Below are positions 9,001-12,000 of a stretch of 42,776 bases of DNA, piece by piece (position 1 is the stretch's first letter; every line of letters starts with the position of its first letter). Origin of the DNA: a virus (taxonomy: Duplodnaviria > Heunggongvirae > Uroviricota > Caudoviricetes); IMG/VR virus record IMGVR_UViG_2874945390_000010, positions 1 through 42,776 of that record; one strand, 5' to 3'. The position numbers were made by a program.

Positions 9001-12000
9001 TATCCTCCGTCAGCTCGACTTTTTCCAGCAGCTCCTTGCCGAGATGGGATTCGGTTATCTTGCCTTTGAAAAAATCCAGGTAACCTTCCACATCATCGCT
9101 CGCCCGACCGACGGCCTCCACGAATGCCGATTTGCCAACGGTGTTCACACTGCGGTATAAAAGTAATAATCATGGCCCGGTTTGATATTGATACTGGCGG
9201 CTATCCAGTACAGCGCCGTACCAAGATAGCGGGCTGTGGTTTCAACCTGCCTGATATCGGTAATCCGCTTTTCCGAGAACCAGAACTCAAACTGTACCGT
9301 CGGGTCATAAACGGCAAGATGCGGCGTGGCGGTTATCTGAAAATAGCCCGGCGTCAGCTCAATCCTCGACGGTGCTGCCGGTGCGGCAATCCGGAACGAT
9401 ACCGACGCCGGATCGCCCTGCTGCCCCCACGCATTTACCGCCCGGACTGTCAGTCTGTAGTTCCCCAGCGCCAGTTGCCTGAAGCGGTATGTGGTTTCCG
9501 TCGTCCGGGCCGTGCTGACCAGCCGCTCACTGCCGTCATCCGCTGCCACGGTCAGGCGAAGCATAAAGCTCCCCCCTTCACCACCTTCGGCGTGTCCCAG
9601 CGGGCCAGTACCTGATACTCCCCGCTGTCTGCGGTGACTTCGGCAGTCAGGTGCTGCACTGCTGGCGGCGTGACACCATTCACCGTGCCGCTCTGGTCAC
9701 CGTCAAAGTGCGCCCCGTTATCCACGATGGCCCCTTTTTCCGGCACATGCTGCACGGCAGTGATGGCATACGTGCCGTCGTCGTTCTCACGGATACTCAC
9801 GCAGCGGAACAGGCGCTGGCGCAGCATCGGCAGCTTCAGCCCCCACACGCTGTATTCTGCAACGCCGTCAGGAACACGGCTCACTTTCACCTTCACGCCG
9901 TCGGTGACGGACTGGACCTCCACACTGACCGGATTCCCCTGCCCGTCAACCAGGCTTATCAGCGTGGTGCCGGAGGATGGCAGCGTGATTTCACGGTCGA
10001 GCGTCAGCGTCCGGGTCTGGCTGTTCACCGCCAGCACACGCCCACCGGTGCTGATCCCCGCATAGTCATCATCACAGATTTCAATGACATCGCCCGGTAC
10101 ATGGCGAAGCCCTTCGGCACCCACGCTGAAGTCCACGGTCTGCGTTTCCAGCAGTTCTGTTTTAATCAGCCACAGCCCGGCGCGGTGTGCCTGCCCCCGG
10201 CTGGTACAGCCAAAGGCATCCATCTTCGTGACGTTACGACCGTAACGGACAATGGCCTGCGTGTCCTCCACAAGCTCTGTCGCCGTCTCCCAGCCGTTGT
10301 TCGGGTCAATCCAGTTCACCTCAACGGCATTATGACGGTCCTTCAGGGCGCTGAAGCTGTAGCGGAACGGCGCGCCATCATCCGGCATCACCACATTACT
10401 GCGGTTATAGGTCCACACCTTATCCGATGGCCGGTCCTGCACGAACGTCAGCGTCTGCCCGTTCCATACCGGCATACAGCGCATCGCCGAGCAGAAATCA
10501 CTGAGCACATCCCACGCCTTGCGCTGCGTGGTCAGGTACGCATTACAGGTGATACGCGGCTCCGTGCCACCAAAGCCGTCCGGCACTGACTGGTCGCAGT
10601 ACTGGCCGATGACATACAGCGCCCATTTATCCACATCCGCCGCACCAAGACGTTTCCCCATGCCGTAGCGCGGATGGGTAAGCATATCCCACAGACACCA
10701 GGCCATGTTGTTGCTGTATGCCGGTTTTAACGTTCCGTCCCAGATACCGCTGTATTGCCGCGTCTGCGGGTTATAGTTCGACGGCACCTGCAGAATGCGC
10801 CCGCGAAGATGATAATTACGGCTCACCTGCTGGCTGCCGAACTGCTCCGAGTCCACCTGTACGCCGACCAGTGCCGTGTTCGGGTAGCACTGTTTCACAT
10901 CGATGATTTCGGTGTACGACGACCAGAGCGTTTTGTTCTGCAACTGGTCTGTGGTGCTGTCCGGTGTCATCCTGCGCATCCGGATATTAAACGGGCGCGG
11001 CGGCAGGTTACCCACCACCACCGAGGCCAGATACTGCGAAGTGGTTTTGCCCTTAATGGTGATGTCTTTTTCCGTCACCCAGCCACCGTTACGCTGTATC
11101 TGAACCAGCAGGCGGACTTCCGACGGATTCCGGTCACCCTTTGAGGTGGTTTCCACCAGTGCCTGCACACCGAAGGTCAGGCGCAGACGGTCGATGTTTG
11201 CCGACGTGATGGTCCGGGTGATCGGCGTGTCGTATTTCACTTCCGTACCCAGCACCGTCTCGGAGCCGGAGGATTCAAAGCCCTCCGGCGGTGTCTGCTC
11301 CTGCTCACCGGCCCGGAACACCACCGTGACGCCGGAGATATTGGTATTCCCCTCACTGTCCAGCACCGGCGTACTGTTCAGCAGCACGCTTTTTAATCCC
11401 TCCACAGGACCTTCAACCGGCCCTTCGCTGATGGCATCGATCACACTCAGCAGCTGCGTGGACTTCAGGTTGTCCTTCGCTTCGCGCGGGGTATGCCCCT
11501 TACTGCTGCCTTTACCCATTCCTCACGCTCCATAAACGACAAAACCGCCCGGAGGCGGTTTCACATAAAACATTTTGCATCAACGACCAATCACCACCAT
11601 ATCCCAGCAACTGCGCGTCGTCAGATGCCCGGGCACTGGCATTACTGTCCGCCAGACTGCTCTCATACGCAGCAAGCTGCTCACGAATCTTTTTCTGGTC
11701 GATGAGTGCTGCATTCTGCAAAAGCGTTTTTTTCTGCGCTTCTGACAGGGTTGATAATTCGCCCTGACTGACCTGATATTTCATCTTATCCAGTTCAGTA
11801 TTCTGCCCTGCCAGTGCTATCTGTTCTTTTTGCTGTTTAATCAGCCGTTTATAAATATCTTCTGTTTTTTCCGCTTCGGTCTTTTTATGCGCTTTGGGTT
11901 TATTTGCCTGGTTATTTCGCCAGGCATCCAGTGAGTTATTGATATAATTCTGTCTGGCTGTCTGATACGCCTCTCCCACAAAGCCAAGATCATCCGCAGC

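Follow-up and report, generated by a model that had tools for sequence, protein, structure and literature searches.

Frameshifts in the tip attachment gene J of a decaying cdt-I-carrying lambdoid prophage of Shigella boydii

The gene J, encoding the tip attachment protein (central tail fibre), is very probably a genuine frameshift pseudogene in the decaying, cdt-I-carrying lambdoid prophage of Shigella boydii CP026836.1. The window, by which we mean the whole stretch of 42,776 nucleotides analysed here, is a part of this chromosome (assembly GCA_002950135.1) and spans nearly the whole prophage, which lies at tRNA-Ser(CGA)/mtfA. S. boydii is the published species of CP026836.1 (PMC12817139), and the NCBI name of its IS4 transposase also gives S. 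boydii. One of the two single-base deletions in J is found in two further S. boydii chromosomes and by itself takes the distal fibre and the receptor-binding domain from the product; the other occurs in this assembly alone, in a run of G residues, and whether it is a mutation or an assembly artefact is about evenly balanced.

The J reading frame and its two deletions

J occupies positions 8108..11519 on the minus strand (3412 nt), and its DNA is 96-97.6% identical to intact gpJ genes. In a megablast search, a single intact J covered this stretch in hundreds of lambdoid phages and in thousands of prophages of E. coli, with a best identity of 97.6%. Seven intact genes (lambda, Perceval, E. coli MARGA_3, EC32, KS-NP019, UPEC 26-1 and 042) were aligned with the window, and exactly two frame-breaking gaps were found, each consisting of one nucleotide missing from the window, which confirms the two single-base deletions described in the first-pass annotation. 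Lesion 1 lies in a G6 run (C6 on the plus strand) at 9571..9576, with the gap between plus-strand positions 9571 and 9572. Lesion 2 is the loss of one T on the J strand at 9154..9159, with the gap between plus-strand positions 9155 and 9156.

The gene is thereby divided into three ORFs of 655, 139 and 346 aa, all on the minus strand and, as had been proposed, in three different frames (start coordinates modulo 3 of 2, 0 and 1). The first fragment (9552..11519) carries FNIII-A_GpJ, Phage-tail_3 and the first 40 positions of Ig_J, and it ends in a 7-residue out-of-frame tail, GGALCFA*, with its stop codon at 9552-9554. The second (9145..9564) continues Ig_J to its end and includes most of Ig_J_second, and its ORF requires both lesions together. 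The third (8108..9148) begins with a GTG start that overlaps the preceding stop and comprises the tail-tip fibre domain and the C-terminal receptor-binding domain, with no N-terminal hub for tail attachment. Across the three fragments Pfam recovered FNIII-A_GpJ, Phage-tail_3, Ig_J, Ig_J_second, Phage_Tail_Tip and Ig_GpJ_C in canonical order, all six above the curated cut-offs, with lesion 1 cutting Ig_J and lesion 2 cutting Ig_J_second.

Repair of both lesions in silico gave a single ORF of 1137 aa (3414 nt) with no other stop, and the repaired protein was 98.9% identical to MARGA_3 gpJ over its full length; 1137 aa therefore replaces the 1130 aa given earlier as the intact length for this allele. 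When lesion 1 alone was repaired, a stop remained at 791 aa, and when lesion 2 alone was repaired, at 655 aa. The claim that no full-length central tail fibre can be made as one protein thus holds either way, with translation ending at 655 aa, or at 791 aa if lesion 2 is the sole lesion. Members of the gpJ family have one continuous ORF of ~1130-1165 aa, which the window lacks; what it has are non-triplet indels relative to seven intact genes and premature stops at codons 655 and 791, as in a frameshift pseudogene. Judged from these features, J is to be classed as a pseudogene of the gpJ / TipJ family and not as a functional member.

The domain order of window J is that of lambda gpJ (NP_040600, 1132 aa), of the MARGA_3 protein (WP_113398111.1) and of PERCE_20 of Perceval (1137 aa), and its place is the same as in lambda and the orthologues, with lom, the side tail fibre gene and tfa downstream of it. 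Compared with the lambda order H-M-L-K-I-J-lom-stf-tfa, the downstream lom, side fibre gene and tfa are present, with an IS4 element between them and J, whereas upstream the genes M, L, K and I and the 3' part of H are absent. The differences from lambda gpJ and the orthologues are a reading frame broken once or twice and the deletion of I, K, L and M. In DNA, window J is 89% identical to lambda and 96.4-96.8% identical to the E. coli and phage copies, and its C-terminal receptor-binding third belongs with MARGA_3 and Perceval in type and not with lambda. Lambda J, to which the first-pass annotation had compared the gene, does make the gaps visible, but with this identity and with GGGCGTG at lesion 1 it is a poor reference.

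A deletion common to three S. boydii chromosomes

At lesion 2 the J strand reads TTTTATACCGC in place of TTTTATATCCGC (TATATCC to TATACC), a context that is not a homopolymer. The identical deletion is present in S. boydii CP026824.1 and CP027027.1, which also share the upstream ORF end with the window, and the 3' third of J is 100% identical over 1042 nt between the window and both sister genomes. Consistently, the exact 346-aa product was found in three S. boydii chromosomes in a collection of 15 billion proteins. The IS4 element (6645..8070, minus strand, 1426 bp, with an intact 442-aa transposase) interrupts the terminator hairpin of J, with CACCAGAAATGGTG as a direct repeat on either side (8071-8084 and 6631-6644) and GAAATGGTG/TAATGCCG as the junction sequence, and its insertion site is identical in both sister genomes. 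Elsewhere the deletion was missing: it occurred in 0 of 111 metagenome J loci and in none of the intact relatives. Complete RefSeq genomes of E. coli and the phage collection yielded neither lesion, and the best J matches there (97.6%) were all intact, since the source is a Shigella and lies outside those collections.

The representative of the 346-aa C-terminal protein cluster, P0032 from an ENA metagenome contig, was considered as an independent case of lesion 2 and was rejected, as its TATATCC is intact; that contig holds a J remnant cut by a rearrangement ~60 nt upstream.

The three chromosomes carrying lesion 2 differ from one another in IS content, in a 255-nt deletion and in a 5.6-kb deletion. 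The sister genomes, unlike the window, keep L, K and I, with IS3-family insertions; the 255-nt deletion lies inside J in one of them, and the 5' two-thirds of their J is 3.1% divergent from that of the window. The three assemblies apparently come from one sequencing project, as their accessions belong to adjacent series. A systematic error common to all three is nevertheless very unlikely because of the non-homopolymer context of lesion 2, and because the probable errors in these assemblies are, every one, contractions of short runs, nearly all of them G/C runs. From its presence in two further chromosomes together with the IS4 site and the identical 3' third of J, we conclude that lesion 2 is best explained as an inherited mutation, not an error, that predates the split of the three S. 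boydii strains.

It follows that an intact J in the living strain, with sequencing error behind both lesions, is very improbable. Homopolymer errors do occur in the window and in the sister assemblies, which lends this reading some substance, but lesion 2 lies outside any homopolymer and is identical in three separately assembled, mutually differing chromosomes. The first-pass annotation had envisaged resequencing that yields an intact J; at best, lesion 1 would vanish and a split into 791 and 346 aa would remain.

The G6 run and the accuracy of the assembly

The window assembly, which is of PacBio type, undercalls G/C runs. The Illumina-based Logan contig ERR200293_315 matched window positions 23052-11522 with 0 mismatches and one gap over 11.5 kb. 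The gap falls at 12919-12922, where the tape-measure gene is frameshifted: the G4 of the window is a G5 in the contig, as it is in four other Illumina contigs and in CP027027.1. It is this lone G5-to-G4 difference that reveals the undercalling. By run length, window miscalls relative to Illumina were 0/46 for four-base, 1/14 for five-base and 0/1 for six-base G/C runs. CP026824.1 is much worse, contracting 27% of four-base and 56% of five-base runs; it has ~20 such contractions in 11.4 kb, and nearly every single-base difference between it and the window is a G/C-run contraction.

Lesion 1 is peculiar to this assembly, as the exact 655-aa and 139-aa J products were found in one contig only, CP026836.1 itself, in the 15-billion-protein collection. 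The earlier suspicion of sequencing error, which had been directed at the G-run lesion and not at the other, is supported by this restriction and by the G5-to-G4 undercall, with lesion 2 recurring in two further chromosomes. No exact match was obtained with the repaired products, namely a 1137-aa protein, a 791-aa one carrying Val or Gly, and a tape-measure fusion of 810 aa; this look-up is uninformative, since the contigs of short-read assemblies break off where J begins, those of Logan without exception at window position 11522. The absence of J products from such assemblies is probably due to the repeats of J, which fragment them.

The site of lesion 1 reads GGGCGTG in most alleles, as in lambda, and GGGTGTG and GGGCGTG in the two sister genomes. 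Over 131 nt around it, the window equals five E. coli genomes except for one extra base in theirs, and three of the five read GAAGGGGGTGAGC. With GGGGGTG, the closest local alleles, as the reference, lesion 1 amounts to a missing T between G5 and G, and relative to this common allele it would not be the contraction of a pre-existing common homopolymer. We scanned metagenomes for the lesion 1 flanks separated by one or two free bases and obtained 111 loci, in 110 of which the free bases were TG (GGGGGTG). The remaining one, OLSG01001627.1, had GG, and its G7 run lies in an intact 1165-aa J encoding KVVKGGSF; the G6 of the window is therefore one G short of a natural in-frame G7 allele. None of the 111 loci is a close relative of the 5' part of window J (best 96.9%), so that the ancestral state of lesion 1 is not inferable from them. 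A pattern scan of species-representative genomes gave no matches. A cluster of substitutions just 3' of lesion 1 (TTTATGCTTCGCC) was considered as a sign of decay and rejected, since it is an allelic haplotype also present in intact E. coli genes.

Three routes could lead to G6: the common allele may have lost its T, a rare G7 may have slipped, or the assembler may have undercalled a G7. All three are rare, and rough priors give a real mutation and an artefact about equal weight. A strain-specific mutation, by which the T was lost from GGGGGTG or a G7 slipped to G6 and J truly consists of three ORFs, has slightly less than an even chance of being right. It is favoured by the clean loss of a non-homopolymer base relative to the common local allele; by the nature of the probable errors in the sister assemblies, nearly all of them G/C-run contractions; by the accuracy of the window elsewhere, with 0 mismatches and a single indel against Illumina in 11.5 kb; and by the freedom of a gene already dead from lesion 2 to gather more lesions. 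Its confinement to one assembly speaks against it, as does the existence of an intact G7 allele at the exact site, which, with a G5 demonstrably shortened, makes a G7 read as G6 plausible.

The artefact reading, to which we give an even chance, holds that the true sequence is G7 (Val to Gly, in frame), that one G was dropped and that J is split once, into 791 and 346 aa. The sole difference between the window and Illumina over those 11.5 kb is an error of just this type, one in 14 five-base G/C runs is wrong, sister CP026824.1 has ~20 similar contractions in 11.4 kb, and the G7 allele is known from an intact J. On the other side, G7 is rare (1/111 loci), the J that bears it is only 96.8% identical to window J, the single checkable six-base run was called correctly, and a rare allele and an error are both needed.

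That the breaks are bypassed in vivo, through programmed ribosomal frameshifting, transcriptional slippage or phase variation of the G run, with full-length J made or switched, is scarcely credible. A G6/G7 tract is of a type that can vary in length, and G5TG, G7 and G6 all occur in public sequences. In all intact relatives, however, J is a single-frame gene, a two-frame arrangement is not conserved, and at lesion 1 the frame is unbroken in 111 of the 111 metagenome loci with the local haplotype. Moreover, lesion 2 has no slippery context, the two shifts (-1 and -1) do not cancel but sum to -2, and with M, L, K and I absent and terL stopped there is no virion for J. We regard it as highly unlikely that the run at 9571-9576 is a naturally hypervariable tract of lambdoid J genes that toggles expression of the distal fibre and receptor-binding part, with the 346-aa or the hub fragment kept for a host function; for such a tract, the existence of three run states (G5TG, G7, G6) is the sole supporting observation.

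Decay of the prophage and its cargo

The prophage is bounded on the right by an integrase gene (40718..41743) adjoining tRNA-Ser(CGA) (41796..41885) and mtfA, and at its left, tail-fibre end by intact genes for the type I cytolethal distending toxin, cdtC, cdtB and cdtA (1..2215, minus strand, identified by Pfam), beyond which yodB and then zinT follow outside the window. CdtB matches the type I allele Q47089 exactly, an allele found on at least 1000 contigs. The reading frames of cdtABC, lom and the side-fibre genes are still open, and the maintained part of the prophage appears to be this cargo. With its lambdoid gene order, its integrase and tRNA site and the loss or interruption of essential morphogenesis genes, the element is a defective lambdoid prophage.

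Its defects were scored against the intact E. coli relative EC32 and, in the early region, against a second relative. The tape-measure gene is reduced to a remnant (11512..13949, minus strand) whose 3' end is joined at ~11595 to the last bases of gene I; relative to EC32, ~3.2 kb is gone at this junction, so that M, L and K are missing, together with almost the whole of I and the 3' part of the tape-measure gene. The large terminase gene terL has a TAG nonsense codon at codon 97 (21635..21637, minus strand), where EC32 has GAA, and the 483-aa ORF left by it was found on 13-14 contigs, Illumina (Logan) assemblies among them. The terL TAG and the M-L-K-I deletion junction both recur in five or more Illumina-based Logan contigs, each set derived from a separate run, indicating that they are real features of a lineage. 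The runs SRR4181342, ERR2287283, SRR4180506 and SRR4180898 have the terL stop codon and the deletion of the window. Comparison with the second relative and Pfam further placed an IS630-family element at ~30282-31431 and an IS1 at ~37242-38031. The Q antiterminator gene appears to retain 199 of 273 codons, with indels at 26666 and 26534, and its truncated product was found in this assembly only; Illumina contigs over the Q frameshift were sought through the neighbouring RusA, but this protein is too common (22,099 blocks in the collection) and the genomes obtained were all unrelated.

In the history that these observations suggest, a T would have been lost from TATATCC at 9155/9156, in an ancestor common to at least two other S. 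boydii strains. With lesion 2 alone, translation from the J ATG would stop after 791 codons (9145-9147), before the distal fibre and the receptor-binding domain; lesion 1, if added, would shift the stop up to codon 655 and give rise to the 139-aa middle ORF. Whichever status lesion 1 has, no tail tip can be assembled; lesion 2 is by itself enough to deprive the product of the distal fibre and the receptor-binding domain, and the biological conclusion is therefore independent of lesion 1. The J lesions were probably neutral, arising in a phage already disabled by the loss of baseplate partners and packaging enzyme, although the order of events in the decay is inferred. Selection may likewise have acted on the cargo genes alone. 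In a prophage with so many other defects, the inactivation of J has no separate consequence; it is pseudogene formation of the ordinary sort.

A precedent for such a split is found in lambda itself. Hendrix and Duda are said to have reported in 1992 that stf of lambda PaPa is divided by a 1-bp frameshift into orf-401 and orf-314, and the split stf ORFs are visible in the lambda annotation. As in window J, a single-base deletion has there left a lambda-type fibre gene as a series of ORFs that follow one another in different frames. The two cases differ in that lambda PaPa is viable and stf dispensable, whereas J is essential for tail assembly and adsorption and the prophage that carries it is already defective.

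That lambdoid prophages can carry cdt-I genes is known (Asakura et al. 2007, PMC1964815; Toth et al. 2009, PMC2612248), and the E. coli CDT-I-converting prophages resemble the window in having type I cdtABC as cargo beside lambdoid tail-fibre genes. The phage of Asakura et al. is reported to be inducible, whereas the copy in the window has lost its packaging and tail functions. Cryptic ('grounded') lambdoid prophages of E. coli and Shigella decay by IS insertion, deletion and point mutation (review PMC6379469), and the window shows the same pattern, with IS4, an IS630-family element, IS1, a multi-gene deletion, a nonsense mutation, frameshifts and a cargo that is kept; there is no difference in kind.

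For the reading of these genomes, the result serves as a quality flag. Lesion 1 and the tape-measure frameshift at 12919-12922 both lie in G/C runs with shown or suspected undercalling, and pseudogene counts from these genomes need short-read checking. The biological weight of the finding is small: it adds a further Shigella prophage that keeps its cdt-I toxin cargo while the virion genes decay, in which lesion 2 and the IS4 site could mark the lineage of this S. boydii clade.

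Small sequence differences in the tape-measure, Q and terL genes

The frameshift in the tape-measure gene arises because the window is a single base short at 12919-12922, where it reads C4 on the plus strand (G4 on the gene strand). This run has five bases in five Illumina-based contigs, in the sister assembly CP027027.1 and in E. coli EC32, which carries an intact relative of the prophage, and this one base is the sole difference in 11.5 kb between the window and the Illumina-based contig ERR200293_315. The C4 is probably a homopolymer undercall of long-read sequencing. The same gene contains an in-frame 6-nt tandem duplication at 12639-12644 (ATCAGA on the gene strand), which, among the sequences compared, is common to the window and ERR200293 only and marks this sequencing run as the same strain as the window or its closest relative.

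The Q antiterminator gene was compared with that of an E. coli prophage of 99.6% identity. Relative to this reference, one G is missing at 26666, outside any homopolymer, and one C is extra at 26534 (C3 to C4), and the Q ORF in the window assembly ends at 199 of 273 codons. The apparent truncated product is found only in this assembly (CP026836.1). Downstream of Q, the late regulatory region of the prophage carries a tRNA-Met gene (26220-26295); tRNA-Arg and tRNA-Ile are annotated at this place in the related E. coli prophage. For terL, codon 97 (21635-21637) is TAG, two substitutions apart from the GAA of EC32, and the truncated 483-aa ORF is present on 13-14 contigs, Illumina assemblies among them.

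Base calling in the sister assembly CP026824.1

Compared with the window, the S. boydii assembly CP026824.1 (L007) shows about 20 single-base deletions in 11.4 kb across the whole locus, nearly all of them within G/C runs of four to six. The genes split in this way include that of the IS4 transposase, cdtA and the tail fibre gene. The assembly appears to be an unpolished product of long reads, and pseudogenes called from it are unreliable. Its J gene also has an apparent in-frame gap of 255 nt (85 codons) at the L007 9921/9906 junction, corresponding to window 9244-9498. This gap lies between the two single-base lesions of J, the G6 run at 9571-9576 (lesion 1) and the TATACC at 9155/9156 (lesion 2), and extends over the greater part of the first Ig-like domain and into the second.

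Insertion sequences and a divergent tract in J

An IS4 with an intact transposase (6645-8070, 1426 bp), flanked by 14-bp direct repeats (6631-6644 and 8071-8084), has its insertion point exactly within the J terminator stem, and this insertion is common to three S. boydii genomes. An IS630-family element encoding a 343-aa DDE_3 transposase occupies about 30282-31431 in the early region, and an IS1 (InsA, 91 aa; about 37242-38031) lies directly upstream of the gene for an 812-aa exonuclease.

At the position of lesion 1, the metagenome contig OLSG01001627.1 (L113), which bears an intact J gene of 1165 aa on its minus strand from 7962 onward, has a G7 run (Val to Gly), an allele seen in one of the 111 metagenome loci. 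Within the window, the 5' two-thirds of J belong to a 2-kb tract (9545-11597) with 3.1% divergence from the sister strains; both flanks are 99.4-100% identical to them. On the 3' side of lesion 1, the tract continues for some 30-90 nt before it stops. The junction of the M-L-K-I deletion (11595-11597) is the same point at which the divergent tract begins. This pattern suggests that one recombination with another lambdoid prophage produced both the M-L-K-I deletion and the divergent patch in J.
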